64,000 bases of DNA from positions 1 to 64,000 of IMG/VR virus record IMGVR_UViG_3300025133_000077; one strand, 5' to 3'. The position numbers were made by a program, and so were the translations under genes. Positions 1 through 48,574 of this stretch are shown piece by piece (position 1 is the stretch's first letter; each line of letters begins with the position of its first letter). The notes beneath the pieces were generated by a model that was given only the letters and a program-made list of their open reading frames with translations, was not told the origin of the DNA and did not search any database. Source of the DNA: a virus.

Positions 1-1114
1 TCTCCACGTTGTCCCCGGCCTGGACCCGAACCGTTCCCGCGGCCTCCAGGAGCCACGACTTCTCCAGGGACCAGTTCACACTGCCGTCCTTGGTGATCTG
101 CATGGACACCTGCACAGCTGCTTCTTCGCCTTCCCCCTCGCCCTCCTTGTCCTGCGAGGTGCTGAACCCCAACAGAGAGTTGGCGGTGCCGGAGCGCGAC
201 ACCTTGAGCGAGGTGTCCTCCCCTGTCTGGGGGGTGGAGAGGCGGAGCTTGCCGTCGTCCAGGATCTTGTACTTCAGGCTCTCGCCCTGGAGAGCCGCGC
301 TCAGTACTCGCGAGAGCTCCTCTTCGTCCTCGGCATCTCCGTCGAGGGTGATGGTCTGCTCAGCCTTCTCTTCGCCTTCGATGGTCCGAGTCACGATGAG
401 GGTCTTGCCGTCCAGGAGCAGCGGGTAGGGGCCGAGGGTCACCTCCACCTGCGCCGGCTGAGCTCCGCCGTTGTAGACCGCCAAGCTGATGGCAGGGTCG
501 TCCGTCTCGTCCCCGTGATGACCCAGGACCATCTCCGCGACCGGGAAGGGGCTGTCCGCCTTCTCCTTCGCGTAGATCTTGCATCGAGTGGGCCGGTCCC
601 CGGTCGTCGTGGTCTCGTCTCGGTCGACCTCCCAGAGGAAGTCCCCTCCGAAGGTCCGCAGGTGGTAGGCCTCGCACATGTCCCGGATGATGTTGTTGAT
701 CGGGAGGTACAGCCGCTGGGCCAGGGGAGTGGCCTGGATCTGCACTACTCCGCCCCGCCGCACGAACACCGAGTTGCCGTCGCGGGTCCCCAGGTAGATG
801 TCCCCGGGGTTCATCGGCCGCCGGCCGGACTGGTAGCTGCCCTGCTCGTTCCAGGCTGCTCCGAAGCCGAGGATGAACGCCTTGTCGTCGAACTCGCTGG
901 ACTGGCAGACCCAACACATGCTGCCGGCCTCCGGCATCACCGAGATGCCTTCCCCCTCGGCGTGGTGCAGGTAGGGAGACATCAGCGGGATGCTCATCCA
1001 CCTCTTCGCGGAGTTCTGGGAGGCGACGTCGACGGAGTAGGTGCGGACGTTGACGTCGTAGACCACCCCGGACTCGATGACGGGCGTGCCGAACGAGGAG
1101 ACGGCTGCGGTCAC
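1..1114 (-). CDS. Putative baseplate spike/puncturing protein (gp5/gpV-like N-terminal OB fold); runs off the left edge
   Basis: Absent from the ORF track because there is no stop in the window. Hand translation gives MTAAVSSFGTPVIESGVVYDVNVRTYSVDV...SPYLHHAEGEGISVMPEAGSMCWVCQ...AFILGF, which resembles the gp5/VgrG OB-fold G..G...P..G..V.V pattern. The GTG start overlaps the upstream TGA and follows a GAGGAG SD. Confidence 0.6.
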   Translation of the reverse strand, partial: MTAAVSSFGTPVIESGVVYDVNVRTYSVDVASQNSAKRWMSIPLMSPYLHHAEGEGISVMPEAGSMCWVCQSSEFDDKAFILGFGAAWNEQGSYQSGRRPMNPGDIYLGTRDGNSVFVRRGGVVQIQATPLAQRLYLPINNIIRDMCEAYHLRTFGGDFLWEVDRDETTTTGDRPTRCKIYAKEKADSPFPVAEMVLGHHGDETDDPAISLAVYNGGAQPAQVEVTLGPYPLLLDGKTLIVTRTIEGEEKAEQTITLDGDAEDEEELSRVLSAALQGESLKYKILDDGKLRLSTPQTGEDTSLKVSRSGTANSLLGFSTSQDKEGEGEGEEAAVQVSMQITKDGSVNWSLEKSWLLEAAGTVRVQAGDNVE

Positions 1115-1467
1115 GGGCACTCCTCGGCGAGCCCCTGGGCTAGCAGCAGGCTCGCCAGGTCACCGGCGAGGGGCTCCCCGTGGCTGTCCATGGGGTACAC
1201 CAAGGCCAGCCAGCGGCCGTACTTGCCGCTCTTGTCCTTGAAGGTGCGGAGCAGCACGGGCTTGTTGAGCACGCGCTCCCTCACGAAGTCGCGGGCCTCT
1301 CGAGCCAGCGCCTTCGTCTCCTCGGTACCTCCTCGGAGCTCGGGCGTGTCGATGCCCTTGAGGCGGAGCTTCTGCTTCTTGAGCACGACGCCGAAGCCGA
1401 GGTCGATGTCCACGGTGAGGGTGTCGCCGTCGTAGACGGCCGTGACGAAGGCGCGGTACTCGTACAT
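1111..1467 (-). CDS. Thermonuclease (staphylococcal nuclease-like), no signal peptide
   Basis: Motifs YDGDT, LRLKGIDTPE and KYGRWLA. The ATG at 1467 overlaps the upstream stop (TGATG). Confidence 0.9.
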   Translation of the reverse strand: MYEYRAFVTAVYDGDTLTVDIDLGFGVVLKKQKLRLKGIDTPELRGGTEETKALAREARDFVRERVLNKPVLLRTFKDKSGKYGRWLALVYPMDSHGEPLAGDLASLLLAQGLAEECP

Positions 1468-4400
1468 CAGGTCCCCTTGCGGGCCCATCCCTGGCGCTTC
1501 TTGTAGCGGATCGGCTTCGGGCGGCCCTGCCGGCGGACGCTCTTCAGCAGCTTGTTGGCGTTGGTGTCCATCTGCTTCGGCAGGATGCCACGGCCCGTCT
1601 TGTCCTTGGCCAGCCCCTTCTTCGGGGCGACCCCGACGAGCCCTCGCTCCGGGATGTAGATCTTGCGGTAGTCCACCGTGACCTCTTCACCCGCCTCCAG
1701 CTCCCGCAGAGCCACCAGGTAGCGGGCCTTGCCCTTCTTCTTGATCTCGGCGTTGGGCTCGTAGCTGTGGTTCGTCTTCCGGCCCTCCGGCGACTGCATC
1801 CCGCGCTCGTCGAAGGCGACGGCGATGGGCTTGCCCTTCTTGACGGGCTCGTCGGTGAAGAAGCCCTTGCCGTGGATCTTGGACGGGTGGACGGCTGCCT
1901 TCTTCTGCAGGGGCAGGTGGTAGCGCAGGAACATCGAGCTCGGCTGGTACTTGTGCAGGAACTCCGACGGCACGTCGGAGGGCCTGAAGTCCTTCCCCAG
2001 CAACGGCTTCCCGTCCTTCGCAGCCCCGCGGTTGTGCTCCTTGCGGATCCTCCTCCGCTCAGCACGACTTCCGAAGCGGATGCCTGGCGTCTTCGCCCAG
2101 ACCGCCTTGCCCTGGTCGTCGGCCTCGGCCCCGACGTGGGTGGCTCCCAGGGACTTGCCGGCCTGCGCGATGCCCTTCATCCCCGCCGCTCCGATGCCAC
2201 GACGACGGAACTCCGGCTTCAGGTACATCGAATCCGCCTCGACGTGCCACTTGCCGCGCAGCAGCTTCTTCTTGAGCGTCAGGTCCGCGGTGCCGTACGA
2301 GAAAGCGTGATCGTCCTCTTGGAAAGGGTTCTTGTCGCCGTCGGTGCGCAGATGGATGGTGGCCTTGGGGCTCATGAACCCCAGCCCTCGGTACGTCTCC
2401 ACCTTGTGGAGCTTGGTGTGCTCGGGCAGGTGCTGCGGAATCGCCTTCTCCAGGTGCTCCCGCAGCACCTTCGGCCGATCCCGCCACCTGGTCTTCGCCA
2501 GCAGCTCGGAAGCCTCCTTCTTCCGCGGGGTCCGAGAAAGCACGAAGCGCTCCTGGGCCGTCAGCGCCTTCTTCCGCCCCTTCGCCACCTTGGCCATCAC
2601 CAAGGCCGTGGAGATGCGCTTCCCGCGCACCGAGCGGTTCCTGAGCGCCTTCTTGAAGTCCTCCACCGAGCAGGCGGAGAGCGAGCCGAAGAACTTGGGG
2701 TTGTCGTAGGCGCGCAGGTACTCCCGCTTCGCCTCCTTCGCCGAGGTGAAGCCGAGCATCACCTTGTCCTCGTCGAAGACCTTGAAGCCGGGCGCCTTCA
2801 TCTGGTGGACGATGTAGACGATGTCGCTCTTCTCGTTCGGGCCCACGTAGACGTCGACGGGGTCGCCGTCGGCGCCGAGGCTCCGCGGCACCTCGCCGTA
2901 GTGGTGCGGCATCACCGTCCGCCACTCCTTGCCCTTGGGGCCCTTGCCCTTGCGCACGGAGCCGCGCTTGTTCTCGATGTTGATCTTGATGCCCTGGAAG
3001 GTGCAGGTGCCCTGGTAGGGGAACTCCTTCCGGTTCCTCTTCGGGGGTGACGTGATCTTGACGGCCGCCGTCTTCGCCTGCCCCGGGGGCTTCGGAGGGG
3101 CGGGCGGCTTCGGCAGCTTGAAGATCTTGCCGCCGGACTCCACCTGCGCTGCTCCCTGCGGAGATCCGAACCGGCGAATCTGCTGCTGCAGGGCGGCCGG
3201 GGCGTGGACCATGCGCTGATCTTGCCCAGCGTCTGCGGCTGCGGTCCTGCCCCGGCGGAGGGCGGACCACGCCCTGTGCATGGGGCTGCCTCGGTACTGC
3301 TCCGTCGGGGCGTTCGAGATGCCTCCCTTCGCGCGGATGAAGCCGAATGCCTGCTTCTGCATCGCGGCCTCGCGAGCATGCCGCTCCCGCCGGGCGCGCA
3401 AGAGGCGGTGCACCCCGTACCCCGCCAGTGCCGTGGCACCGACTGCCGCTCCGCCGATAGCCACCTGTCTGCCTGTCGGCCTCCAGCCGCGCGCTGCGGA
3501 GGGGGGAGCCGAAGTAGGAGTCGGAGCTGGAGTGGGCCGGGAAGCCACCACCTTCTCGGCCACCTGCTTCGCCGCCGGGGCAGCGGCGGGAGCCGGGCGG
3601 GAAGCCACCACCTTCGCAGCTACCTGCTTCGCTGCGGGCGCGGACTTGGCCGCAGCCTCTTGCTTCACCTTCGCTGCAGCAGCGTCCCGCTGCTTCTGGA
3701 AGGCAACGGGACTGACCCCTGCTCGCCGGGCAGGACGCACCACGTCCCGGTGATACCTCTGGTTCTTCAGAGTCTGCTGGTGCCAGTCCAGTTCCTCCGT
3801 CGGCCTACCCGTCCTGACCTTCTCCTGGAGCAGCTCGTGCAGCTTCCTGTGCCGGTGCTCCACCGGGCCCGCTCGATTCTTGAGCAGGTGTCGACTGTGC
3901 CGAAGTTGCGACCTGTCGCCGCCTTCGCGGACCTTCTTCTCGAGGTCCAGGCTGTCCAGGTACTCCAGACGCTTCCACGTCTGCATGTCCTGGCGAGACG
4001 GTTCTCCCGGCCTCCACTTCGGCTCGGCAGGCCGCTTGAGGGTCGAGGGATCCCGCTCTCGCAGGTACCGCGGCTTCCCTGCCATCTTCTCGTGTCCGCC
4101 CAGCACCTGCCGCACCATCATCTGCACGACCGCCCAGAGCTCTGGGCGGTCCATGTCGTCAAGGTGCTGCTTGCCAACTGCCCGTTGACAATCCGCCATG
4201 AAGGCGGGGGAGTTGTCCCATTCCACCCCCAGGTGGTCAGCGATTGCGTGGACCTGCTCCTGGTCGAGCTCCGTGAAGCCGCGGCCCTTGCCCAGGTTCT
4301 GCAGCCACTCCGCGGTGTGCTGGGGCGTGCTGTACCTGCGCTCCTTCCACAGCTGTGGATGAAGGCTGTGGGCAACCCCGTGCCGCTCGAAGAGGGCGAT

Positions 4401-4769
4401 GGTCTGGTCGAGGCCGAACTTGTCGCAGGCCATCTCGAGGTGGATGGTCGGCCGGAAGTCCCGGAGGTACTCCTCGTCGGTGCGGGCGTCGACGACGTGA
4501 CCGAGGTCGTGGTAGCCGGACCAGGCCCGGTCCTCCAGGGAGACCGGGACTCCGCGCCGGCGCATGGCGAGGTAGATGACCTTGTTGACCTCGTCCTGCG
4601 CCGCGTAGCTGGGCATGTCCTCCAGGATGTGGAGGCGGTACCCGTACTTGGCGAGCTCCCCCTCGAGGTTCGAGAGCACGAGCTTCCACGCCCGGCCCTC
4701 CTCCCTCTCGGGAGGACGGTCTACCGCAGCTCCCGTCTTGACGAAGTCGACGAAGTCTTCAGTACGCAT
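1467..4769 (-). CDS. 1100-aa polyvalent protein: zincin-like N-terminus, Ala/Pro/Lys linker, hydrophobic helix, InPase (inorganic pyrophosphatase-like), GNAT acetyltransferase and SET domains
   Basis: HDLGH...E near the N-terminus. InPase: IENKRGSVR...HYGEVPRSLGADGDPVDVYVG...FDEDKVMLGF. GNAT motif A: YLKPEFRRRGIG. SET: SKIHGKGFFT...NHSYEPNA...ALRELEAGEEVTVDY. Confidence 0.8.
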   Translation of the reverse strand: MRTEDFVDFVKTGAAVDRPPEREEGRAWKLVLSNLEGELAKYGYRLHILEDMPSYAAQDEVNKVIYLAMRRRGVPVSLEDRAWSGYHDLGHVVDARTDEEYLRDFRPTIHLEMACDKFGLDQTIALFERHGVAHSLHPQLWKERRYSTPQHTAEWLQNLGKGRGFTELDQEQVHAIADHLGVEWDNSPAFMADCQRAVGKQHLDDMDRPELWAVVQMMVRQVLGGHEKMAGKPRYLRERDPSTLKRPAEPKWRPGEPSRQDMQTWKRLEYLDSLDLEKKVREGGDRSQLRHSRHLLKNRAGPVEHRHRKLHELLQEKVRTGRPTEELDWHQQTLKNQRYHRDVVRPARRAGVSPVAFQKQRDAAAAKVKQEAAAKSAPAAKQVAAKVVASRPAPAAAPAAKQVAEKVVASRPTPAPTPTSAPPSAARGWRPTGRQVAIGGAAVGATALAGYGVHRLLRARRERHAREAAMQKQAFGFIRAKGGISNAPTEQYRGSPMHRAWSALRRGRTAAADAGQDQRMVHAPAALQQQIRRFGSPQGAAQVESGGKIFKLPKPPAPPKPPGQAKTAAVKITSPPKRNRKEFPYQGTCTFQGIKINIENKRGSVRKGKGPKGKEWRTVMPHHYGEVPRSLGADGDPVDVYVGPNEKSDIVYIVHQMKAPGFKVFDEDKVMLGFTSAKEAKREYLRAYDNPKFFGSLSACSVEDFKKALRNRSVRGKRISTALVMAKVAKGRKKALTAQERFVLSRTPRKKEASELLAKTRWRDRPKVLREHLEKAIPQHLPEHTKLHKVETYRGLGFMSPKATIHLRTDGDKNPFQEDDHAFSYGTADLTLKKKLLRGKWHVEADSMYLKPEFRRRGIGAAGMKGIAQAGKSLGATHVGAEADDQGKAVWAKTPGIRFGSRAERRRIRKEHNRGAAKDGKPLLGKDFRPSDVPSEFLHKYQPSSMFLRYHLPLQKKAAVHPSKIHGKGFFTDEPVKKGKPIAVAFDERGMQSPEGRKTNHSYEPNAEIKKKGKARYLVALRELEAGEEVTVDYRKIYIPERGLVGVAPKKGLAKDKTGRGILPKQMDTNANKLLKSVRRQGRPKPIRYKKRQGWARKGT
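3538..3650 (-). repeat. Imperfect 60-bp tandem duplication in the linker of the polyvalent protein
   Basis: Two copies of cgggaagccaccaccttc...cacctgcttcgc 60 nt apart, encoding APAAKQVA(A/E)KVVASRP. Confidence 0.8.
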
Positions 4770-7700
4770 AGGGCTTCTTCTCCGTGCCCTTCCCGAACTG
4801 CGTGCCCAACACCAGCCCGGGGATCGGGTTCGTCCCGTGGATGTTGGTCTTCCAGCCCTGGGCTCCGCCCTCGGTGAGGGTCTTCTTCAGCTCACGGTAG
4901 TTGAGCCGGCCCATCCAGTCCTCGCTGGAGGCCATCGAGACCTCCTGGATGCCCTTGAGCACGGGGTCGTGGTCAGCTCCCTTGCCGCCCTTCTTCCCGA
5001 TCTCCCGGTTCACCTGCTCCAGCTTGGTGGTGGGGACCATGTCCCCTCGCAGGAAGCCGGTGTCCCCGGGCTGCTTGATCATCGAGAGGTTGGTGAGCGA
5101 GCGGACCACGGTCTCCATGTTCCGCTTCTTCACCTTGCCGCCGTAGGCGCCGTGCATCTCGTCGGTGAGGTAGCCCTTGACGCTCTCGATGCCGGCGACT
5201 TCCAGCAGGTGGTGCGGGTTCACGGGGCCGGAGGACAGAGCCTCGCCGAGAGCGACCTCGATCATCAGCGTGCCGCGGAGTGCGCGCATGACCTTGTCGG
5301 AGGGCTTGTTCCTGGCGGGGATGTAGTGGCTCTTCGGCGTGGGGAAGTACTTCCCGTACCGATCCTTGCCGCGGATGTGGACACGCCAGCCGCCGGCGGG
5401 GTCCACCTCGGCCTTCATGATCTGCCCCTTGTACGAGGAGATGGTGGCCTCGCCCGGCAGGGACTTCGTCAGGTGGAGCAGCTGCCCGAGCCGGGTGAAG
5501 GAGTCGGTGCGGCTGGCCTCGGCCTTGCTCACGACACCGCCGGTGTGGAAGGCGTTCATCGAGAGCTGCGTCGCCGGCTCGCCGATGGCCTGGGCCGCCC
5601 AGATGCCCACGTTCTCGCCGAGCGACGGGGAGCTCCCCGCCTCCGTGACGCCGTAGCACATCGCGCACACGCCCTCGGACTCCTCGCACTTCAGCGGGGA
5701 GCGGACGAGGACCTGGGCGACGCCCGAGTTCTTGATCTTGGTCAGCACCTCGGCGGTGAGCAAGGTCTTGCTGGGCACGTCGCCCTTCTTCAGCTTCACG
5801 GGGACCGCGGTGTAGCGGTCGTGGATCTCGGAGTCGGCCACCGACATCAGCACGCCGTTGGTGGTCCCGCAGTCGGGGGAGGTCACCAGCTGGTTGATGT
5901 TGGCGCTGACCAGGTCCTTGGTCAGCTCTCCGGGAGCCTGGGTGCCCTTCACCTTGCCCAGGGTGCCCATGCGAGCGCCGGACAGCGACGCCCAGTACTC
6001 CGCGGCGCTCAGCCCCTCGGAGTAGCTCTTCTTGATGGGGATCGGGACGGCGCTGCCGTTGGGGTCGGTGACCAGCACCGGGGCCAGAGTGAGCTGCTTG
6101 AACTGATCCCAGTTGCCTCGCGCGCCCGACTGCACCATCTCGTACATGCGGTTGCCTGTGCCCTTCATCTTCGCCTTGCCCTCGGCGTCGATCTTGTTCA
6201 GCGCCCCCATGTACGCGTCGACGACGGCCTTGTCGCGGCCCTTGCCCTTCTTCATCGCCTTCGCGGCCTCGCGGTCGGCCTCGGCGAAGTGCTTGTCGCG
6301 GATGTCCGGGCGGGACAGCACGTCCTTCAGGCTGAAGGAGTAGCCCGTGTCGTAGGTGTGCTTGTTGCCCAGCTGGTTCAGCTTGTTGACCGTGATCGAG
6401 AACCTCTGGGGGTGCGCCTTGGCCAACGGAGCCAGCAGGGAGGACACCGCGCCCTTGGTGAGCACCAGCGCCGGGTCCGCCAGGACCTTCTGCCTCTCCT
6501 TGGAGCCCGCGGGGAAGCAGTTGGCCAGCATCAGGCGGCCGACCGTGGTCTTCTGCTGGCCCGCCTCCTTGATCGTCTCGTCGATCTCCGGGGCCCAGTG
6601 CGAGCCTCCTCGCCACCACGCCGCGGTCTTGGTGATCACCGAGGAGCCCACCGTGATCTCCTCGGACGCGGTCACCTTCCCCTTCTTGTACGCCTTGATG
6701 GCGTCGTCGGCGGAGACGAAGGTCTTGCCCGTGCCCTTGCCCCACTTGCTCAGCTGGTAGAGGCCGAGCTGCGCCTCCTGGCTGGGCAGGTTCATCAGCC
6801 GGCCGGAGGAGGCGCTGAACAGGTTGTTCGAGGGCACCATCTTGCGGGCCTCGGCCACAGCCTCCTGGGTCAGTGGAACGTAGATCGCCGTGGTGTCGCC
6901 GTCGAAGTCCGCGTTGAACCCGCCGGTCACCAGGGGGTGGATGCGGATGGCCTTCCCCTTCACCAGCTTCGGGTGGAAGGCCATGATCCCGTGCTTGTGG
7001 AGCACGGGGTCACGCTTCATCAGCACCGGGCGGTCCCGCACGACGGACTCGAGCGCCTTCTTCGCCACCGGATCGTTCTGCTTCACCGCGAGCTGGGCAC
7101 GCAGCGGGGAGTAGCCGAAGACCTGGACCAGCTCCCGCACGACGAAGGGCTTGTACATCTCCATCGCCGCCTTCTGGGGCAGCCCCACCTCGTCCAGTCC
7201 CATCGACTGCTCGGGGATGATCGTGGAGCGCATGGACAGGTCCATGCGGCGGCCGATGATCTTGTTCTGGAAGTAGCCCGACTTCGGCTGCGTCCCCTTC
7301 ACGGTCTCGAGCACGCCGCGGTAGTGCCGGCCCTGGTACTTCTGGCCGTCCATGGTCAGCGCCTTGAGCCCGTCGTACAGCTCGCGGTACAGCGGCACCT
7401 TCTGGTTCTGGGGGAGGCCGGGGTCGAAGTCGCGGAGCTTCTGGTTCGTGAGGGACAGCCCCTTGTAGAGCTGGTTCACGTCGGCCGCCGTGGTGTTGCC
7501 GCTGTCCATCACGGACACGGGGCGGAACTTGGGCGGCATGATCGGGATGTGCTTCCGCATGTACGCGTCGGCGGGGTTGAGCTCGGCCGCCTTCAGCGCC
7601 TGGAGGTAGCGGACACGCCGGCGCAGCCGGCTGAGCTTGTACTTGCGCGCACCCTTCAGGGCGGTCAGCGTCTTCTTCAGCTCTGCGTCCAGGTCCAGGC

Positions 7701-10700
7701 CCCGGAGCGCCTTCTCGATGCCCTCGGCGCCCTTGCCTCCGCCGGGGACCTCCTTCTCGTGCCCCACGATCGCAGCGATGTCCCCCTTCTTGAGGTCCAG
7801 CAGCGACGTGATCGCGTTGTCGAACAGGGGGTTGGGCAGCGCTGTCTCCAGGGTCATGTGCCCCCAGCGCTGCTTGTCCGCGTGCTCCGGGTGCAGGGAG
7901 CCGAAGATCTTCTCGTCGAAGATGCCTCCCTTCTCCGGCTTCATGTCCTTGCCCCGGAACATCCGGCCCGGGTCAGCGACGTGCCCGTTGCTCAGCCCCA
8001 GGACCTGCTTGTCCGTGAGGGGCTTGAGCTGCATCTCGTCGCCCTTCTTCTCCACGTCGAGCCCCATGGTCTTCAGGAACCCCTCGAACTTGTGGTAGGT
8101 GAAGGGGATCTTGGGAGCGGGAAGGGCCTGGCCGGAGTGCAGGGCCGTCCACATGTCGGCGTTGTAGTCCGACTTGTGGGTGTACATCTCCCGGAGGTTG
8201 TGCCGCGCGCCGTGGGCGAGCATGGAGTACAGGCCGAGCGCACTCAGGGACTGGGCGCTGGTGCCACCTCCCTCCTTGGGGGAGCGGTCCAGGTTGTACG
8301 GCGCCGACGTGCCACCGGAGCGGGAGGTCATCTTCTTGGAGACCTTGTGCTTCATCTTGAAGATGTACTGGTTGCCGATCAGCACATCCCCCATCTTCTT
8401 GCCGGTGTCGGGGTCGAAGAGCTCCTCCGTGTCGGACAACCCGTGCTTCTTCAGCTCGGACTGGACCACTCGGCCGTAGTCGGCCTTGCCCTCCTCCTGG
8501 GGGAAGTTGTCGACGTGGTACGCCTTGCCGGACTTCTCCGCGATCTTCCCCGCCAGGGTCTCGAGCACCTGGCCGACGTTGATGCGGGACGGGACGCCGT
8601 GGGGGTTCAGGGCGATGTGGATCTGGTTGCCGTCCTTGGTGACCGGCATCTCCTTGTCGTGCACGATGCGGGAGATGATCCCCTTGTTGCCGTGGCGGCC
8701 GACCAGCTTGTCGCCGACCTGCGCCGGCTCCTCGGTCTTGATGTGGACCTCGATCTGCTTCGCCGTCCGGATGACGCGGACGACCTTGCCCTTGTAGCCC
8801 TTGTCCCAGAGCACCGATCGGTTCGAGTAGTCCTGCACCTTCGAGCGCTTCAGGGCCTGGTAGGCCGCGGCCTCCGAGCCGATCTCCCGCTTCTGCAGCT
8901 TGGCGATGAGGACGTCCCCCTCCTCGACGTCGGAACCGTCCTTGATCACCCCGCGGGGGTCGAGCTTGGCCATCTGCGCCGTCGTCACGGTGCCGGGCGA
9001 GATGTGGGCGAGGAACTTGGCCTTGTCGAACACCGAGTTGCGGTCGATGGTCGTCGACATCCGGTACATGTGCAGGCTGGTGAGCATCGAGGACGCGGAC
9101 TGGGAGATCACCACCCCGTCCTCGAAGTTGTAGCCCTTGAAGGGGACGTAGCCCACGCGGAGGTTCTTGCCGAGGGCGAAGGTCCCGTCCTTCGTGAAGT
9201 TGGTGTCGGCCAGGAGCTGCCCACGCTTCACGCGGTCGCCCACCTTCACCTTCAGGTGGGCGTCGAGGTAGGCCTCGTCCTGGTTGAGGGGGAAGTCCTT
9301 GTAGACCTGGACCTCGTGCTCCTTGCCCGTGCTGTCGCGGATGAACACCGCGTCCTTCACGATCTTCGTCACCACCCCGTTGACCGGCGCCTGGTGGGAG
9401 TTGAAGGAGCCCATCATCTGCTCGAAGGTGTGTCCCTCGCCGGCGTCGGTGGCGCTCTGCACCAGCGGGGCCTCCCGGTGCTTCAACGAGACCACCTGCT
9501 CCTGCATCCGGGACGCCGTCATCGTGCGGTTGCCCTGGTTGTTGTGCAGGAAGGGGATCAGGTTCGTGGGCAGGGAGTACATCCCCTTCGAGGTGAGCAT
9601 CACGTGCGTCACCTCGTTCCAAGGGCGCATCATCACGTCGTTGCCCTTGCCGGCGACGGCGACGTTCTTCGCGTTCTTGGGCAGAGGCATCTCGCCCGCC
9701 CACTTCACCTGGTCGGAGAAGGCCACGACGTACCCCTGGAAGTCGTGCGGAGCCACCTTGTCGATCTTCTTGGTCTTCCGGTTGTACAGGGAGACCCGGA
9801 GCTCTCGGCCCTCCTTCTCCACGCCCAAGGGCAGCTGCAGGGTGATGCCCGTCTTCGCGCCCTCCGGAGTGGTGATGGGGTCCAGGTAGTTCAGGTGCGT
9901 GTTGTTGATCCGCAGTGCCTCCTTCGGCACACGCTGCAGGTCGGACACGGCGCCGGGACCCATGATCGTGGTTCGCATCTGCCCCGACACGAACTCCAGC
10001 GGGTTCGTCTGGTTGGGCATCTGGGCCAGCGACGTGGAGAAGAATGAGCCCATCGGCTTGCCGAAGACCGCGGGGTTGACGATCTGTCTGACCGTGCCCT
10101 TCTTCCCGTCCAGGCCCTGCCGCAGTCGGCGGCCGATCTCAGCGCGGGAGCGGTGCAGTCGGTCGGAGAGGTGGTCCTCGATGGACAGCACGTCCTTGAA
10201 GGCCAGGGACTCGCGGTCGTCCGGGGCAGCCTCACCGCGGGCGAGGCTCAACAGCTTCTTGGAGGAGGTCAGCATGGCCTCCCCGTTCACCGCGGCGAAG
10301 GGCTTGCCGAGCGTGAGCTTGGTGCTGTCCTTCCGCAGCTCCGCCGCGGACAGCGTCTTCCTGACCTCGGCCTGCGCCTCAGCGAGCGTCTCCGCCGACC
10401 CTCCGGTGGTCCTCTTGAGGATCTTGTTCAGGGACTGCAGCTGCTTCTTCTCGTCCCCGTACTTCTTGACCGAGGCGTCGTAGATCTCCCCGCCCCACGC
10501 TTTCTTGATCTTGTCGTCGGGCTCCCCCATCGCCCGGAGCACCGGGTACAGGCCGATGTCCTCCATCGAGCCGAACTTCAAGGTGAAGACGCGCTTCTCG
10601 GGGTGGAAGTAGGACCAGAAGCGGTCCGCCTTCGCGCCCTCCCAGTTGTTGATGTTCCACTGGGTCACCAGGCGCCCCGCCTCGTCCTCCCGGTGGTAGA

Positions 10701-11058
10701 CGCCCGACTTCAGGCGGAACTGGTTGTCGACCTGCCGCTCCTTGCCGTCGACGATGTAGGAGTAGCGTCGGGTGATCTTGGGGATCTTGGCCACGGTGAT
10801 CGTGGACTTGTCGATCACCTCCCCCGTGGTCTTGTCGATCAGGGAGAGACGGGCCTTGACGGGCACTGCCCAGGAGCGCCCGTGCAGCTTCGCCTCCCGC
10901 TGCGAGCGGATGTCGTCGAGGCTCAGGTCGTCGGCGACCCAACACTTCGACATCTCGAGGCGGCGGTTCTGTCCCTCGAAGGGGAAGTGATCGGCGACAG
11001 CCTCCGCGACACGGCTCTTCAGCGTCTCGAAGGCCTCTTCTGGGTCGAGCTGGGCCAT
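4759..11058 (-). CDS. Phage two-barrel DNA-directed RNA polymerase, beta and beta' fused in one polypeptide (about 2099 aa)
   Basis: Beta motifs: QTNPL, TPEG, GKNLRVGY..GYNFEDG, GDKLVGRHGNKG, LNPHGVPSRINVGQ, KMKHKV..KMTSR. Beta' motifs: GGIFDEKIFG, GRRMDLS, RDPVLH, NADFDGD (6895-6915), SGARG, DCGT..RSPLKC..C..CYG, GEPATQL..FHTGG. Start moved to the ATG at 11058 (GAGGA SD). Confidence 0.95.
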   Translation of the reverse strand: MAQLDPEEAFETLKSRVAEAVADHFPFEGQNRRLEMSKCWVADDLSLDDIRSQREAKLHGRSWAVPVKARLSLIDKTTGEVIDKSTITVAKIPKITRRYSYIVDGKERQVDNQFRLKSGVYHREDEAGRLVTQWNINNWEGAKADRFWSYFHPEKRVFTLKFGSMEDIGLYPVLRAMGEPDDKIKKAWGGEIYDASVKKYGDEKKQLQSLNKILKRTTGGSAETLAEAQAEVRKTLSAAELRKDSTKLTLGKPFAAVNGEAMLTSSKKLLSLARGEAAPDDRESLAFKDVLSIEDHLSDRLHRSRAEIGRRLRQGLDGKKGTVRQIVNPAVFGKPMGSFFSTSLAQMPNQTNPLEFVSGQMRTTIMGPGAVSDLQRVPKEALRINNTHLNYLDPITTPEGAKTGITLQLPLGVEKEGRELRVSLYNRKTKKIDKVAPHDFQGYVVAFSDQVKWAGEMPLPKNAKNVAVAGKGNDVMMRPWNEVTHVMLTSKGMYSLPTNLIPFLHNNQGNRTMTASRMQEQVVSLKHREAPLVQSATDAGEGHTFEQMMGSFNSHQAPVNGVVTKIVKDAVFIRDSTGKEHEVQVYKDFPLNQDEAYLDAHLKVKVGDRVKRGQLLADTNFTKDGTFALGKNLRVGYVPFKGYNFEDGVVISQSASSMLTSLHMYRMSTTIDRNSVFDKAKFLAHISPGTVTTAQMAKLDPRGVIKDGSDVEEGDVLIAKLQKREIGSEAAAYQALKRSKVQDYSNRSVLWDKGYKGKVVRVIRTAKQIEVHIKTEEPAQVGDKLVGRHGNKGIISRIVHDKEMPVTKDGNQIHIALNPHGVPSRINVGQVLETLAGKIAEKSGKAYHVDNFPQEEGKADYGRVVQSELKKHGLSDTEELFDPDTGKKMGDVLIGNQYIFKMKHKVSKKMTSRSGGTSAPYNLDRSPKEGGGTSAQSLSALGLYSMLAHGARHNLREMYTHKSDYNADMWTALHSGQALPAPKIPFTYHKFEGFLKTMGLDVEKKGDEMQLKPLTDKQVLGLSNGHVADPGRMFRGKDMKPEKGGIFDEKIFGSLHPEHADKQRWGHMTLETALPNPLFDNAITSLLDLKKGDIAAIVGHEKEVPGGGKGAEGIEKALRGLDLDAELKKTLTALKGARKYKLSRLRRRVRYLQALKAAELNPADAYMRKHIPIMPPKFRPVSVMDSGNTTAADVNQLYKGLSLTNQKLRDFDPGLPQNQKVPLYRELYDGLKALTMDGQKYQGRHYRGVLETVKGTQPKSGYFQNKIIGRRMDLSMRSTIIPEQSMGLDEVGLPQKAAMEMYKPFVVRELVQVFGYSPLRAQLAVKQNDPVAKKALESVVRDRPVLMKRDPVLHKHGIMAFHPKLVKGKAIRIHPLVTGGFNADFDGDTTAIYVPLTQEAVAEARKMVPSNNLFSASSGRLMNLPSQEAQLGLYQLSKWGKGTGKTFVSADDAIKAYKKGKVTASEEITVGSSVITKTAAWWRGGSHWAPEIDETIKEAGQQKTTVGRLMLANCFPAGSKERQKVLADPALVLTKGAVSSLLAPLAKAHPQRFSITVNKLNQLGNKHTYDTGYSFSLKDVLSRPDIRDKHFAEADREAAKAMKKGKGRDKAVVDAYMGALNKIDAEGKAKMKGTGNRMYEMVQSGARGNWDQFKQLTLAPVLVTDPNGSAVPIPIKKSYSEGLSAAEYWASLSGARMGTLGKVKGTQAPGELTKDLVSANINQLVTSPDCGTTNGVLMSVADSEIHDRYTAVPVKLKKGDVPSKTLLTAEVLTKIKNSGVAQVLVRSPLKCEESEGVCAMCYGVTEAGSSPSLGENVGIWAAQAIGEPATQLSMNAFHTGGVVSKAEASRTDSFTRLGQLLHLTKSLPGEATISSYKGQIMKAEVDPAGGWRVHIRGKDRYGKYFPTPKSHYIPARNKPSDKVMRALRGTLMIEVALGEALSSGPVNPHHLLEVAGIESVKGYLTDEMHGAYGGKVKKRNMETVVRSLTNLSMIKQPGDTGFLRGDMVPTTKLEQVNREIGKKGGKGADHDPVLKGIQEVSMASSEDWMGRLNYRELKKTLTEGGAQGWKTNIHGTNPIPGLVLGTQFGKGTEKKPYAY

Positions 11059-11086
11059 AGATCCTCGGGCTGACGGACGTGGGGGC

Positions 11087-11116
11087 AGTGTAAGGGACCC
11101 TTGCAGTACAGCACAA
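11087..11116 (-). promoter_or_regulatory. Sigma70-like promoter upstream of the RNAP unit
   Basis: TTGTGC-N18-TACACT on the minus strand in the divergent intergenic region. Confidence 0.4.
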
Positions 11117-11131
11117 TCACGGAGGATGCCA

Positions 11132-11146
11132 CGGCATAAGCAGAGT
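11132..11146 (+). promoter_or_regulatory. Candidate phage-RNAP promoter motif CGGCATAAGnAnAGT
   Basis: 13 of 15 nt identical to 16372-16386. The TAAG ends 36 nt before the first plus-strand start codon. Confidence 0.5.
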
Positions 11147-11176
11147 AGAGGAACACCCCTCGTAGGAGACAAAGCA

Positions 11177-11308
11177 GTGGCCAACGATCAGCAGAAGAAG
11201 AAGACGCCCCCCAAGGTCGAGAAGCGCTCCAGCGTGCGCCGCTTCTCGAACAACGTGAAGAAGGCGGTGGGCGGTCACCGCCGTCCCGCCCCCAAGAAGA
11301 AGGAGTAG
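11177..11308 (+). CDS. Small, very basic hypothetical protein (43 aa)
   Basis: AGGAG SD before GTG; MANDQQKKKTPPKVEKRSSVRRF...; GC3-rich codons. Confidence 0.55.
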   Translation: MANDQQKKKTPPKVEKRSSVRRFSNNVKKAVGGHRRPAPKKKE

Positions 11309-11435: not shown

Positions 11436-11750
11436 ATGGCCTACTGCCCCCTGTTGCCGGGGCACTGCCGGAACGCCACCGACTGTGGCGGGTGCAGCAC
11501 GTTCTCCGACGTGCTGCACCCGTACGCAGACGAGCTGTTCTGGGTCTGTCCCGATTGTCTTACGCCCCGTCGAGAGCCCAGCGGCTTCACCCTCCTGGGC
11601 CACTACCAGGAGATCGACTGCGACATCTGCAGCAAGCTCTCCAACCTGTGCCAAGCGGCTCTGCCTCCCGACGTACTGACGGCAGCCAAGTGGTTCGAGA
11701 TGCTCCAGCGCATCCTGGAGAAGGCGACCGAGGAGAACGAAGATGGATGA
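11436..11750 (+). CDS. Cys-rich (Zn-finger-like) hypothetical protein
   Basis: C..C...CGGC, CPDC and CDIC...C motifs; GAGGAG SD. Confidence 0.7.
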   Translation: MAYCPLLPGHCRNATDCGGCSTFSDVLHPYADELFWVCPDCLTPRREPSGFTLLGHYQEIDCDICSKLSNLCQAALPPDVLTAAKWFEMLQRILEKATEENEDG

Positions 11751-12108
11751 CTGCTGTGCCCAGTGCCAGGAGCAGTTCGAGCTCCGGGAGACCGGCATCC
11801 TTGAGGTCTACGAGGGGGAGGTCGGCTTCAATGACGAGGGGGAGGTCGCCTTCATCCCCGACGACTTCGCCCAGTACATCCACACCAAGTGCGCGTCGCG
11901 GTACTTCAACCCCGGCGAAGAGGCCGAGGTTCGCAGGGAGATCCGCGAGGAGGTGCTCTTGGATGGAGCCGCCCAGGTGAACGCCTACCTGGGTGGCGTG
12001 GAGAAGATGCGGCAGCGCGAAGAGGAAGAAGAGGAAGTCGCCGAGGAGTGGGTTCGCCCGCCCGCTCGGCGACGCTCCTCTCGTGGGGGGAGGTGGGGAG
12101 GACGATGA
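11743..12108 (+). CDS. Hypothetical protein with CxxC...HxxC Zn motif, acidic segment and Arg/Gly tail
   Basis: CAQC...HTKC; coupled to the upstream gene. Confidence 0.7.
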   Translation: MDDCCAQCQEQFELRETGILEVYEGEVGFNDEGEVAFIPDDFAQYIHTKCASRYFNPGEEAEVRREIREEVLLDGAAQVNAYLGGVEKMRQREEEEEEVAEEWVRPPARRRSSRGGRWGGR

Positions 12109-12141: not shown

Positions 12142-14148
12142 TCACACCAGCGCCCTGCCGGGGTCTCGCCGGGGCGGCTTCTGCGACGGGAGCGGAGACT
12201 GCTGCGCGTCGAGCGGGTCCCGGGTCTCCTTGGAGCCCTGCATGATCTGCAAGACCAGCGAGTAGAAGTGCGGCTGCGTCGACTTCATCTTCTGCATCGC
12301 CGCGTAGGCGTCCGGCGGCTTCGTCTTGAGCAGCTTCCGCAGCTCGTTCGCCGTCCGCTTGGCCACGTAGAAGACGTCCTGACCCGTGCCCGGGTCAGCC
12401 GTCAGCTGAGAGGACGCCTCCTGCGGGACGCCTGTGACCGGAGAGGACTGCCCGTTCTCCGGGTACAGCTTGGCCCCTGCCGGGCCCTCGACGGGGCCGC
12501 TGCCGCCCTCCTGGCCACCCTCCTGGCCAGGGCCGAGCTGCATGGCTCCGCCCCCGCCCACGAGGTCGGACTGGGCCGCCTGCATGTAGAGCTGCATGAC
12601 CTGCTGAGCCTCGCCCTGGCCGACGGCCGCGGAGACCTGGGCCCGTCGCTGGTCCTCGGCCTGCTTCCTCGACTCGGAGCTGAGCAGCAGCCGCTCGGTC
12701 TCGTAGTCCTCGTTGAGTTCGCGCAGGAAGGTGTGGTCGGAGATCTTGTTGGCCTGGTTGGCCTGGAAGTAGATCATCGTGCGCTGCAGGTCGTCCGCCA
12801 TCTTGAAGCGGCGGAACTTCTTGCCCACGCGGGGCCAGCCCAACCACGCGCCGATGGAGTCGAACACCCAGTCCGTGAGGCCCTGGATGTCGGCGCGGTA
12901 GTTGATGAACTCGTTCTCTAGGTTCCGCATGGAGACCTGCGTGCCGGAGTAGCCGAGGCCGCCGAAGATAAACTCCTGCGGGACGTGGAGGCCGGCGACG
13001 ATGTTCTCTGCCCAGACGCGGTACTCCTGGTGGAGCACCATCGCTCGGCCCTGGCCGCCGACCATCTGGTGTCCCACGGGGAGGGGCAGGATCGGGATGT
13101 AGTTGGGGTCCCGCCGCCACCGCTCGATCTCCTCCTCCATCTGGCTCTTCCAGCCGGTGAGGGGCATCGTGGTGTACGGGTCGCTGGTCCCGGAGCCGGG
13201 CTGCGGGAAGATCATGCGCAGCGGCACGATGTGCTCGCGGGCGATGGCTTCCTGGCCCTTCTTGAGGATCTGCAGGTAGTAGGAGTCCTTGAGCACCGGC
13301 AGGATGCGGGACAGACCCCAGCCCTTGTCGTTCCCGTTGCCCGAGATGGACGGGCGCCGCATGTGGAAGAGCTGGCCCGGGGCGAACCGGAGGCCGGTCT
13401 TCTTGCGGGCGGCCTCGACGAAGACGTTGGGGATCTCCTCCTGAAGGTGGTTCCTTCCGATCATCAGCCGCGCCCGCGTGCGGGGGCTCATCTCGTAGTA
13501 GTACCTGCAGTGCCCGGTCTCCTCGTTCACATCGATGGCGATGCGCTCGGGGTCCCACCGGACGAGCCCGATCTTGTACGGGCTCCGCTGCCAGACATCG
13601 AGGGGCTTGGCGTTGCCCACCTTCCTGCACTTGGGGCAGGTGAGGCGGTAGTTCAGCTCCCGCCACTTGTAGTGGGGCCGCAGCTTCTTCGCCGGCGCCT
13701 GGTACTTGCAGTGGTTGCACTGCAGGAACTTCACGAAGGGGTAGTTGATCGAGGTGAAGGAGTTGCCGTAGCACTGGTAGTCCAGGCCGGTCTCCACCTG
13801 GAAGCTGCGGAACTTCAGGATCTGGTCCTTGAGGTACTTGTACTTCCGCGCCACCGCCTCGTGCTTGCTCTCGAACACCAGGTCGGTGATCGGGTACGAG
13901 GCCATCTTGTAGATGACCGCGTTCACCAGCGGGTTGGTGAAGAAGTAGTAGCGGCACCAGCGGAACAGCTTCTTCTGCGACGAGGGCAGGTAGGTGTGCG
14001 CTCCGTCGAAGAAGGGGCTGGGGTACGGCACGCCGGCCCGGCCCGAGGCCCCGAAGAAGCCCGAGCGCAGGTTGGCGAAGCCGCTGCCTCCGGCGGTGCC
14101 GCCGCTCACCCCGTACGTGGGCAGCCCGAAGTCGAATCCCTCAGCCAT
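12142..14148 (-). CDS. Putative portal protein with Zn-ribbon insertion
   Basis: Portal-like pattern: RWCRYYFFTNPLVNAVIYKMASYPI, DYQCYGNSF, LFHMRRP...GWGLSRILPVLK, IVAGLHVPQEFIFGG; Gly/Gln/Pro-rich C-terminal tail. Confidence 0.7.
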   Translation of the reverse strand: MAEGFDFGLPTYGVSGGTAGGSGFANLRSGFFGASGRAGVPYPSPFFDGAHTYLPSSQKKLFRWCRYYFFTNPLVNAVIYKMASYPITDLVFESKHEAVARKYKYLKDQILKFRSFQVETGLDYQCYGNSFTSINYPFVKFLQCNHCKYQAPAKKLRPHYKWRELNYRLTCPKCRKVGNAKPLDVWQRSPYKIGLVRWDPERIAIDVNEETGHCRYYYEMSPRTRARLMIGRNHLQEEIPNVFVEAARKKTGLRFAPGQLFHMRRPSISGNGNDKGWGLSRILPVLKDSYYLQILKKGQEAIAREHIVPLRMIFPQPGSGTSDPYTTMPLTGWKSQMEEEIERWRRDPNYIPILPLPVGHQMVGGQGRAMVLHQEYRVWAENIVAGLHVPQEFIFGGLGYSGTQVSMRNLENEFINYRADIQGLTDWVFDSIGAWLGWPRVGKKFRRFKMADDLQRTMIYFQANQANKISDHTFLRELNEDYETERLLLSSESRKQAEDQRRAQVSAAVGQGEAQQVMQLYMQAAQSDLVGGGGAMQLGPGQEGGQEGGSGPVEGPAGAKLYPENGQSSPVTGVPQEASSQLTADPGTGQDVFYVAKRTANELRKLLKTKPPDAYAAMQKMKSTQPHFYSLVLQIMQGSKETRDPLDAQQSPLPSQKPPRRDPGRALV

Positions 14149-16784: not shown

Positions 16785-17235
16785 CACCATCAACATCGGG
16801 GGGCTCATCCGGGCTGCTCGAAAGACGCGCTTCGGCAGCATGAGGAAGGCCGCAACGGCCATCGTCATCACGGATGCTCGTGGCACCCGCTCCCTGTCGG
16901 GAGAGGGGCTGCGGAAGATCGAGACGGGCCTCTCCCTCCCGTCTGCGAACGTGCTTAGCGCCCTGATCACCGGGTGGGAGCTCGGCAAGAAGGAGGCCGA
17001 CCAGCTGCGGTACGCCGTGCATGCGGCGCACGAACGCAAGGCCGGCTACGAGCCCCGGCAGAAGGAGGACCTCGGAGAGAACCGAGAGGCGGTCATCGCC
17101 TCTGCCGTCGGCGACATCCTCAGCAAGAGCAAGATCCTCGTCGAGGGGATGGTCGAAGAGGAGGATGACCAGGAAGCCTTCCTGGAGGAGCTGAAGACGA
17201 TCGCGGACAAGACGCTGCGAGAGTACTTCCGGTGA
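16777..17235 (+). CDS. XRE-family helix-turn-helix protein
   Basis: IGGLIRAARK...SMRKAA...LSGEGLRKIETGLSLPSANVLSAL; GGAGG SD. Confidence 0.7.
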   Translation: MTDTINIGGLIRAARKTRFGSMRKAATAIVITDARGTRSLSGEGLRKIETGLSLPSANVLSALITGWELGKKEADQLRYAVHAAHERKAGYEPRQKEDLGENREAVIASAVGDILSKSKILVEGMVEEEDDQEAFLEELKTIADKTLREYFR

Positions 17236-18566
17236 CCCTGTACACCTTCTGCAGGAGGGACCCGGGCAGCGCCTACATCGACCGGAATCTCTGGCTGCCG
17301 AAGGTGCGGCTGGGCCTCCGGCCTATCAAGCAGCGGCTGTCCTTCCGAGTCGCGACCGGCAAGAACCGGGACAAGATCGTCAAGATGTTCGCCTACCGAG
17401 AGGAGGAACATCACCTGGTTGTGCCCCGCAACTTCATGCCTCCCCAAGAGCTGCTCGACCAAGACATCCCCGTCATCGATCTGCGCCCCGCGTCTTACCC
17501 TCGGGTGGTGATGGCGCACTCCATCATCCCCCGGCCTCATCAGGTGGAGCCGCTCGCGAAGCTGGAGAAGATCGGCGACGGCACCCTGAACGTGGGGTGC
17601 GGCCGAGGCAAGACGGTGATGGCGCTGTACGAGGCCGCTCGAGTGGGCGCCCCGACGATGGTCATCTGCCAGAACAGCTCCATCCTCCAGCAGTGGGAGA
17701 GGGAGATCAACGACAAGCTCGACTTCAACGGAGACGTGCGGTGGGTCAAGGGGAAGGGCCTGCCGGGAGACGACACCTCCTTCGCCCTCGCCACCATCCA
17801 GTCCCTCTACGACCGAGCGGGGGAGCTGCCTCGCAGCTTCACGCACAGGTGGGGGACGGTCATCTTCGACGAGGCTCACCACGTCTCGGCCCCGAAGTTC
17901 TCGAAGGCCGCGGACATCTTCCCAGGGAGGAGGCTGGCGCTCACCGCGACGGCGAAGAGGAACGACGGGCTGGAGAAGATCTACCAGTACCACCTCGGCG
18001 ACATCTTCCACGTGGACCTCACGCAGGACCTGGTGCCGAAGATCATCTTCCTGGAGTTGCCGGGCTTCGAGCCACCGAAGAGCGTGTACGACGACGTCAG
18101 CCTCAAGACCTGGCTGTCCAAGAACCCCGACTACAACGCCATCATCGCCAAGGAGACCCGCGCCGCTTTGAAGAAGGGGCGGACGGTGATGGTGCTCTCA
18201 CATCGAGTCGATCAGCTGCTCGCTCTGGAGAAGCTGGTGCCTGCGGGCAAGGCCATCTACGGGCCCGTCAAGTTGGAGGACCGCGACGAGATCCTCCGCT
18301 CCGCCAACCCCATCTTCGCGTCCATGAACCTCGCCCAGGAAGGGCTTGATCGGCCTCAGCTCGACACCGTGCTGTGTGCCACTCTCTTCAGCAACCCCAA
18401 CTCGTTCCAGCAGGTCGCCGGACGAGCTCTCCGAGAGTTCGCAGGGAAGATGGACCCCGTCATCGTCTTCTGCGTCCCCACCATCCGCCGCTGCCGCAAC
18501 CAAGCGAAGCGGCTCGCTACCTTCGCCCGCAAAGCGGGCTACCCCGTGGAGTACCACCGAGCATGA
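17232..18566 (+). CDS. Superfamily 2 DEAH helicase (UvsW/XPB-like)
   Basis: GCGRGKT, DEAH, TAT, EGLD and QVAGRALR motifs. Confidence 0.9.
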   Translation: MTLYTFCRRDPGSAYIDRNLWLPKVRLGLRPIKQRLSFRVATGKNRDKIVKMFAYREEEHHLVVPRNFMPPQELLDQDIPVIDLRPASYPRVVMAHSIIPRPHQVEPLAKLEKIGDGTLNVGCGRGKTVMALYEAARVGAPTMVICQNSSILQQWEREINDKLDFNGDVRWVKGKGLPGDDTSFALATIQSLYDRAGELPRSFTHRWGTVIFDEAHHVSAPKFSKAADIFPGRRLALTATAKRNDGLEKIYQYHLGDIFHVDLTQDLVPKIIFLELPGFEPPKSVYDDVSLKTWLSKNPDYNAIIAKETRAALKKGRTVMVLSHRVDQLLALEKLVPAGKAIYGPVKLEDRDEILRSANPIFASMNLAQEGLDRPQLDTVLCATLFSNPNSFQQVAGRALREFAGKMDPVIVFCVPTIRRCRNQAKRLATFARKAGYPVEYHRA

Positions 18567-34834: not shown

Positions 34835-35087
34835 GCCCCCTCTTCTTAGCGTGCAACCGCGTCGTGCGGCTCTTGGCGATCTCCGTCACCCGGTTCTGGT
34901 GCTCCGCGTAGTCGGCGCTCCGCGCGTGCACCTGCTTGCGCCTTCGCTCGACCTTCCACGGCGTGTCGACCACGAGCGTGGCCGCTGGAGACATCTGGGA
35001 CGGCTGCGGCTCTCGAACGGGGGCCCTGCGCCGCGGGGCAGTGCGGGTGCCCTGCTTCTGCTTCTCGGCGAGGTCCCGCGGGTTCAC
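34830..35087 (-). CDS. Small basic hypothetical protein
   Basis: GTGA-coupled to the upstream 1838-aa gene. Confidence 0.5.
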   Translation of the reverse strand: MNPRDLAEKQKQGTRTAPRRRAPVREPQPSQMSPAATLVVDTPWKVERRRKQVHARSADYAEHQNRVTEIAKSRTTRLHAKKRGR

Positions 35088-48268: not shown

Positions 48269-48574
48269 GTGATCTTCACGACGATGCCGGAAGAGCAGCT
48301 GCTGGCCCTCACCGACGGCGAGGAGTGCATCCTGCAGGACGTAGACGACGCGGCGCGGGAGCGAGTCCGCTCCAAGCGCTGCCCGGAGTGCTCCCAGGGC
48401 GTGATGCCCGTCGTGGACCCAGACAAGCCGTTCGACAACCAGACCGCGGGCTTCCGGTACGTCGCCCGGTGCACCGCGTGCGGCTGCGTCTTCGATCCGG
48501 AGAGCGGGGTCATCCGCAAGATCGGCTGCTCCAGTCCCATCCTGCCTCCTACGACAGCACGAGTGGGAGGGTGA
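48269..48574 (+). CDS. Small Zn-ribbon protein, antisense to the baseplate operon
   Basis: CPEC...CTACGCVFDPESG; coding-like GC3; fills the only gap in the minus-strand operon. Confidence 0.7.
   Translation: MIFTTMPEEQLLALTDGEECILQDVDDAARERVRSKRCPECSQGVMPVVDPDKPFDNQTAGFRYVARCTACGCVFDPESGVIRKIGCSSPILPPTTARVGG

Follow-up and report, generated by a model that had tools for sequence, protein, structure and literature searches.

To our knowledge, every sigma-dependent RNA polymerase (RNAP) that has been studied needs an alpha dimer for its assembly, and the multisubunit RNAPs of phages studied so far are split and use no sigma factor. Cellular bacterial enzymes consist of two large chains, beta and beta', together with alpha2 and omega. 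In Helicobacter and Wolbachia the C-terminus of beta is joined to the N-terminus of beta'; these fusions are chromosomal and full-size, and they work with alpha and omega. Here we describe a phage gene in which beta and beta' also form one chain and which occupies positions 4759-11058 (minus strand) of a 64,000-nucleotide stretch of DNA, referred to below as the window. The window makes up the first 64 kb of the IMG/VR virus record IMGVR_UViG_3300025133_000077, which is linear, 74,702 b long, about 40% complete according to CheckV and has a G+C content of 66%; the source is an uncultured marine phage with a genome of roughly 190 kb. We consider the best reading of this gene to be that it encodes a single-chain core RNAP which is carried in the virion and works with a sigma factor of the phage, and we give this reading a probability of about 0.68.

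Several phage-encoded two-barrel RNAPs have already been described. Those of the phiKZ/AR9 type consist of four to five polypeptides and are active with neither alpha nor omega and with no recognisable initiation factor (PMC7598289), and some phage two-barrel enzymes are packaged and injected (PMC7598289; PMC10770324). The crAss gp66, YonO and P23-45 enzymes resemble the one described here in being phage-encoded, single-chain two-barrel RNAPs with no alpha or omega; those of crAss and YonO are too divergent to be found with cellular beta and beta' profiles (PMC7481178). The mReC enzymes, from tailed phages with genomes to more than 200 kb, share with ours beta and beta' homologues that cellular profiles can detect (PMC7481178). 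Among the mReC entries that we compared these are separate genes only, with beta of 900-1563 amino acids (aa) and beta' of 887-1391 aa, and there is no entry of about 2050-2100 aa (PMC7481178). The closest cultured relatives are the Vibrio phages D181, D148 and D69 and the Salmonella phage Arash (OQ632216; PMC10585845), whose enzymes are about 29-31% identical to ours across 96% of its length. Arash and D69 belong to the same clade as our phage and likewise have no beta' zinc ribbon, a portal gene just upstream, an orthologous sigma gene and no alpha or omega. They differ in that one gene of about 1525 aa carries beta with the N-terminal half of beta' and a second, of about 606 aa and several kb away, carries the C-terminal half, whereas here everything is in one chain. 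In purified Arash virions gp206 gave the most spectra of all proteins, and gp216 and the sigma factor gp10 were also detected, the latter with 100% coverage (PMC10585845). The Arash paper goes no further than annotating the RNAP subunits (PMC10585845).

How does the gene described here compare with these systems? With the cellular bacterial enzymes it shares the domain order, the catalytic motifs, the bridge helix and trigger loop, the second zinc site, the clamp coiled-coil and a partner with the sigma70 fold, and it differs from them in being one chain instead of two with alpha2 and omega, and in the loss of the zinc ribbon, the beta' tail and the insertions of the E. coli enzyme. From the Helicobacter and Wolbachia fusions, with which we compared it by description only, it is set apart by its size of about 2100 aa, the missing zinc ribbon and its place in a phage head module. 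Those cellular fusions lie in a chromosomal ribosomal-protein operon context, whereas the neighbours here, on an IMG/VR virus contig, are portal, polyvalent-protein and nuclease genes. The phiKZ/AR9 enzymes are split, come as two sets and have no sigma homologue; here there is one chain, one RNAP locus per genome and a sigma gene. A first-pass annotation, made from the letters of the window, had already contrasted the gene with the split phiKZ/AR9 enzymes and the divergent crAss RNAP, and its one chain, in which seven Pfam RNAP domains are matched, agrees with that contrast.

The fused gene and its reading frame

The minus strand is open from 4759 to 11184, over 2141 codons when counted from an upstream TTG. 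Translation starts at the ATG at 11058; a GAGGA Shine-Dalgarno sequence precedes it by 5 nt, and the start agrees with the N-termini of 20 full-length homologues in the alignment. From this start there are 2099 codons and a stop, and Pfam, PHROGs and the full-length homologues all identify the gene as a fused beta-beta' RNAP. The product of 2099 aa has a mass of 231 kDa, an isoelectric point of 9.55 and six cysteines only.

Is the single frame real? The identical protein (100%) was found on two contigs, one of them 188,377 b long, and a homologue with 79% identity is colinear with it and keeps the whole frame. Two more marine metagenomes, sampled in other studies, have contigs over 7939-8400 and 7879-8133 that cover the region in which beta passes into beta' with 0 differences and 0 gaps, so that neither a stop nor a frameshift was found at the junction. 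The proposal that all beta and beta' motifs lie in one frame of about 2099 aa is borne out by an uninterrupted open reading frame (ORF) with Rpb2 domains followed by Rpb1 domains. The single-frame beta-beta' gene is confirmed as real and is no assembly artefact.

One observation on sequencing depth may be added. At 10771-10805, a 29-nt stretch of the RNAP gene is matched twice, 4 letters apart, by short and very deep contigs from two marine runs (442x in run X1, where the contig is 479 nt long, and 114x in run X2). The high-depth contig is probably an unrelated repeat. No RNA data set was listed as containing the stretch.

The catalytic core and the beta-beta' junction

Seven Pfam RNAP domains are matched by the protein, Rpb2_3 and Rpb2_6 at aa 346-919 and then Rpb1_1 to Rpb1_5 at aa 1147-2003, with E values down to 5e-61 (Rpb2_6), and in PHROGs the two halves match two separate phage families. 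The beta module (8044-11058, minus strand) comprises residues 1-1005 and the beta' module (4762-8040, minus strand) residues 1007-2099. In phmmer searches against PDB chains their best matches are bacterial, beta at 4e-83 and beta' at 2e-121, and the initial description of the product as single-chain and of bacterial type holds.

The catalytic positions were compared column by column in an alignment with 17 rows of the phage family and 17 bacterial rows. The motif NADFDGD (6895-6915, minus strand; residues 1382-1388) was identified in the homologue alignment and by the column check, and A1383 to D1388 are invariant in 21 homologues. Arash and D69 have AADYDGD at this site in place of NADFDGD, and a K at the position of beta H1237. 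In our protein the catalytic lysines of the beta GRHGNKG region (E. coli K1065 and K1073) and the equivalent of H1237 are kept, the columns reading K, K and H. The bridge helix and trigger loop are conserved, with M1834, F1837, H1838, G1840 and G1841 invariant. The four columns of the beta' N-terminal zinc ribbon (E. coli C70, C72, C85 and C88) are gaps in all 17 phage rows and Cys in all 17 bacterial ones. The second beta' zinc site (5656-5871, minus strand) is present as C1730, C1791, C1798 and C1801, which correspond to C814, C888, C895 and C898 and account for four of the six cysteines of the protein; 16 of the 17 family rows retain it. In P0017, a fused homologue of 2043 aa, this site is lost and A, S, Y and D replace the four Cys. 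To judge from the alignment, the RNAP is a complete catalytic core of the bacterial two-barrel type with its catalytic motifs intact.

The rifampicin pocket (residues about 390-450) has N, G, T, M and T in place of E. coli beta D516, H526, S531, L533 and I572, and these residues vary across the family. Since they differ from the bacterial consensus, the enzyme is likely to be naturally insensitive to rifampicin.

The junction between the modules (8017-8079, minus strand; residues 994-1014) is defined by the alignment, by an AlphaFold model of the fragment and by the contigs from other samples. Thermus beta can be aligned as far as residue 1005, and residue 8 of bacterial beta' pairs with residue 1007, so the two modules abut with essentially no linker. 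The junction does not vary in length among 16 of 17 family members, and K1004, G1006, L1011 and P1013 are invariant in the homologue alignment. In the model of residues 880-1300 the junction forms a beta-hairpin of strands 1000-1005 and 1008-1013 (predicted local distance difference test, pLDDT, about 78-92 for the block), and the model superposes on the N-terminal regions of bacterial beta' (Foldseek E about 1e-15). According to this model, the chain leaves the last helix and strand of beta and turns in a tight hairpin directly into the opening strand of beta'. A very short junction at about 8015-8075 had been proposed; the two parts turn out to be joined directly, at nearly the same place.

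Parts missing relative to bacterial enzymes

We mapped the deletions by alignment with the Salmonella subunits, beta of 1342 aa and beta' of 1407 aa, whose numbering is the same as that of E. coli. The segments absent from beta are 1-26, 229-345 (SI1), 412-419, 934-1045 (SI2) and 1123-1176; at the junction beta 1339-1342 and beta' 1-14 are gone; and beta' has lost 68-94 (the zinc ribbon), 146-175, 705-718, 826-835, 945-1130 (SI3) and 1369-1407 (the C-terminal tail). The protein is 650 aa shorter than its E. coli counterparts, and 469 of these (about 72%) belong to SI1, SI2, segment 1123-1176 and SI3, which are lineage-specific insertions. Because the smallest bacterial beta plus beta' pairs that we sampled have 2337-2390 aa, stop to stop, the true reduction is only about 10%. 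Losses from the core itself are the N-terminal zinc ribbon of beta', its C-terminal tail, which in cellular enzymes is embraced by omega, and the trimmed termini at the junction; those of the zinc ribbon and the tail are unusual for an enzyme of bacterial type. The earlier term 'minimised' is correct in that the protein is shorter and parts of the core are lost; it is overstated in that most of the missing length consists of lineage-specific insertions, the enzyme being only about 10% below the smallest bacterial pairs sampled.

A sigma gene and the search for alpha and omega

No alpha, omega or sigma gene had been recognised in the window. This is correct for all three within its 64 kb; however, a sigma70-family ORF of 266 aa lies on the same contig at 65,272-66,072 (minus strand), 1.3 kb beyond the window's end. 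It matches Sigma70_r3 with 30 bits, above the gathering score, and region 4 weakly, and region 2 is visible only in alignment and fold. The protein is 29% identical to Arash gp10 over its whole length (E 1e-23), its AlphaFold model has a pLDDT of 80.6, and all 50 of the 50 best PDB matches of this model are sigma70-family factors. The gene is situated two genes downstream of one for a 1111-aa lysozyme-domain protein (67433-70768), which is colinear with Arash gp8, and the position of the sigma gene relative to this virion cell-wall hydrolase is the same in both phages.

To see what the relatives encode we searched 14 records, namely this contig (40% complete), 11 near-complete relatives (91-100% according to CheckV, three with terminal repeats), Arash and D69. 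A sigma orthologue was present in 14 of 14 and each record had a single RNAP locus. The profiles for alpha (PF01000, PF01193) and omega (PF01192) reached the cut-off in none of the 14, and they did so in 14 of 14 control genomes.

Does this sigma factor belong to the fused RNAP? In a complex prediction for sigma with RNAP residues 1007-1450 the score was 0.75, compared with 0.01 for the best control; of 80 solved complexes 58 score at least as high, as do 2 of 110 mismatched pairs. At least 70% of the contacts agreed between runs, and the pLDDT of the partners was at least 71. The predicted dock is the beta' clamp coiled-coil (7369-7518, minus strand; residues 1181-1230), which faces sigma residues 67-82 in region 2. 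The predicted interface is the canonical one of coiled-coil and region 2, as in cellular holoenzymes.

Family, distribution and phylogeny

More than 120 clusters with 100% query coverage and 41-79% identity, on contigs of up to 220 kb, were found in a word-indexed search. The fused homologues have lengths of 2043-2130 aa; insertion of intein or homing-endonuclease domains raises this to 2300-2970 aa. In an exhaustive phmmer search with the beta' half, 117 of the best 150 representatives (50% clustering) were counted as fused because they have at least 1990 aa; the 33 shorter ones may be fragments truncated by contig ends or genuine splits. IMG/VR contains many related contigs of 178-210 kb that are 91-100% complete, three of them with terminal repeats. 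The family is large: it has hundreds of 50%-identity clusters, and its phages, with genomes of about 180-210 kb, come from the sea and from other habitats. The uniqueness which the first-pass annotation implied has to be given up, since the family is very large and fused, and cultured split relatives exist whose RNAP was detected in virions. In a full-text search of the literature we found the fused family nowhere described, no biochemical or structural study of any member and no characterised enzyme that it matches. It is an undescribed variant of the bacterial-type and phage RNAPs.

Open frames vary in some relatives: those of L074, a 210-kb relative, have 1257 and 576 aa, those of L059 have 1488 and 1242 aa, and L076 has a fused form of 2329 aa with 28% identity. 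Among the 150 nearest representatives 71 exceed 2160 aa (maximum 4739 aa), and many of these have LAGLIDADG, Hom_end or intein-splicing Pfam domains; the homologues P0011, P0013, P0029 and P0046 are among the carriers. It seems that inteins and homing endonucleases favour the fused RNAP gene as an insertion hotspot; the copy in the window has neither.

We also searched 185,579 prokaryotic species representatives. Among the best 80 loci two were members of the family and the rest were ordinary rpoB-rpoC genes at 26-33% identity, from many phyla with none preferred. The two family loci are on a 162-kb contig of a metagenome-assembled genome (MAG) of Leptolyngbyaceae (L107) and on a 204-kb contig of a Bacteroidales MAG (L108). 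Both contigs are probably phage, and their binning gives weak hints of a host at best. A bacterial or prophage origin of the gene was rejected, as the only two family members among these 80 loci are on phage-sized MAG contigs.

A maximum-likelihood tree (LG+G4, 36 rows, 2033 columns) was obtained from a short search and is unrooted, with a bacterial sample chosen by motif. In this tree a branch separates the 16 bacterial pairs (support 99) from the phage family (99), so the enzyme does not nest within the sampled bacterial rpoBC. Its identity to any bacterial rpoBC of the 185,579 species representatives is at most 33%. Arash and D69 fall within the phage clan with 100% support, between the deep fused L076 and the other 14 fused sequences. 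Because they are nested among fused forms, their split within beta' looks secondary, if the root is outside the clan. Loci of the mReC kind form a separate long branch. Membership of our gene in mReC was rejected: in the entries that we compared the mReC genes are separate, and the mReC-like loci L080, L083 and L084 match with 25-27% on their distinct branch.

Genomic setting

The portal gene (12142-14148, minus strand; 668 aa) lies upstream of the RNAP gene on the same strand, with two small plus-strand ORFs (11436-12108) between them; its product has 31% identity to Arash gp204 (E 5e-82) and to the D69 counterpart (E 3e-93). A divergent intergenic region of 377 bp precedes the RNAP gene. About 19 relatives share the arrangement in which two conserved genes are followed by the portal gene, the RNAP gene and the gene at 2-1120.

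In the window two further genes stand between the RNAP gene and the one at 2-1120. The first encodes a polyvalent protein of 1100 aa (1467-4769, minus strand) with InPase, GNAT and SET domains according to Pfam and PHROGs, and its ATG overlaps the end of the RNAP gene by 11 nt. Such InPase domains are found mainly in minor head or structural proteins of phages. Of the relatives, none but the three closest (L004, L007 and L008) have this polyvalent gene directly behind that for the RNAP. The second (1111-1488, minus strand; 125 aa) is staphylococcal-nuclease-like (Pfam SNase, 6e-09; phrog_452 endonuclease, 2e-29) and is the last of the minus-strand run to which the RNAP gene belongs. The pair, which stands behind the RNAP gene in those three relatives alone, looks like a recent insertion at the conserved junction between the RNAP gene and its next neighbour.

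A helicase gene at 17232-18566 (plus strand) was considered as an orthologue of the Arash virion helicase gp217 and rejected (E 0.33). There are no tRNA genes in the 64-kb window. A long minus-strand block contains very large ORFs at 35084-40600 (1838 aa), 41263-45969 (1568 aa) and 48549-54971 (2140 aa), with a coding-like G+C content at third codon positions.

Proposed mode of action and alternatives

The enzyme has the catalytic motifs and domain order of a bacterial core in one chain, and its relatives encode a sigma factor and neither alpha nor omega. What we infer beyond this is its independence from alpha, its use of sigma, its packaging and the timing of its transcription. We hypothesize that the covalent link between beta and beta', with the loss of the zinc ribbon and the beta' tail, makes the alpha2 platform and the omega chaperone unnecessary, and the loss of the tail would go with that of omega. 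The 266-aa phage sigma would supply promoter recognition by docking on the clamp coiled-coil and steering the core to phage promoters. Core and sigma would, as Arash suggests, be packaged and injected with the DNA, and they would start early transcription. Packaging, injection and early transcription are proposed because the gene lies beside the portal gene in the head module, because it is the sole RNAP locus in related genomes and because both the homologous enzyme and sigma are abundant in Arash virions. A sole RNAP would probably serve all temporal classes, and it would probably carry the whole phage programme independently of the host polymerase.

Could the enzyme instead stay out of the virion? 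It might be produced only once infection is under way, from promoters that the host polymerase recognises, and then take over middle and late transcription with the phage sigma, unpackaged. The 377-bp intergenic region ahead of the gene could hold an ordinary promoter for this purpose, and the proteomic support for packaging comes from Arash, which is of the split type, and not from fully fused members. However, in about 19 relatives the RNAP gene is flanked by the portal gene on one side and by a further conserved structural-block gene on the other, gp206 had the top spectral count in Arash virions and the sigma there was fully covered (PMC10585845), and the InPase polyvalent protein which follows the gene in the closest relatives is of a virion type. 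We regard a purely intracellular enzyme as unlikely, if still worth serious consideration.

It may also be that the fused chain is one part of a hybrid enzyme which still needs a host alpha dimer, and perhaps omega, much as the Helicobacter fusion works with its own alpha. Alpha2 is used by all cellular RNAPs, natural beta-beta' fusions included (PMC7598289), and at about 28-33% identity to bacterial beta and beta' the surfaces that contact alpha might survive. On the other hand, none of the 14 related records encodes alpha or omega, the beta' tail is deleted, RNAPs of the phiKZ/AR9 type are active with neither subunit (PMC7598289), and a capsid-borne enzyme would need to bring host alpha along. 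A hybrid of this kind appears to us quite improbable. That the gene is an artefact or contaminant, either an rpoB-rpoC pair joined by mis-assembly or frameshift, or a cellular fusion of the Helicobacter or Wolbachia kind, a view which only the general risk of metagenomic contigs favours, is effectively refuted by the identical protein on two contigs, the junction unchanged in two further samples, the hundreds of homologues with the same frame, the neighbouring portal, polyvalent-protein and phage helicase genes, the 99-support branch between it and bacterial rpoBC, and the absence of the zinc ribbon that 17 of 17 bacteria possess.

Several points nevertheless weigh against a virion-carried core with its own sigma. 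Packaging and transcription in this phage are read from its genes and from Arash, the source of the virion data, whose enzyme shares only about 30% identity with ours and is encoded in another gene architecture. Its authors themselves caution that abundant enzymes might co-purify with the particles and so contaminate them (PMC10585845). The absence of alpha and omega rests on the relatives, because the contig itself is about 40% complete, and a non-homologous assembly factor or host alpha may be used. For the sigma factor, Pfam PF04542 (region 2) has no match in this contig or in four relatives, and the high complex score shows likeness and not binding, because this is a textbook pair that resembles solved holoenzymes. 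A search for a promoter motif in 17 intergenic stretches of the 74.7-kb contig, using 10-mers with one mismatch, gave a best motif present in 7 of them, and shuffled sequences gave 5-8. With these points in mind, the strongest form of the proposal, a minimal and self-sufficient machine of two polypeptides which is packaged in the capsid, injected and runs the whole programme with no host polymerase, is put forward tentatively and has, in our opinion, somewhat less than an even chance of being right.

Significance

Arash and the Vibrio phages provide cultured entry points into this family. If the proposal is true, the fused RNAP and its sigma would offer a two-gene, probably rifampicin-insensitive transcription system of bacterial type for in vitro and synthetic-biology use, and an enzyme of two polypeptides would be the simplest known sigma-dependent holoenzyme. 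A single-chain core acting with a sigma70-type factor would show whether assembly and initiation can do without alpha, omega and the beta' zinc ribbon. It would also show how an enzyme of 231 kDa is packaged and injected by these phages.

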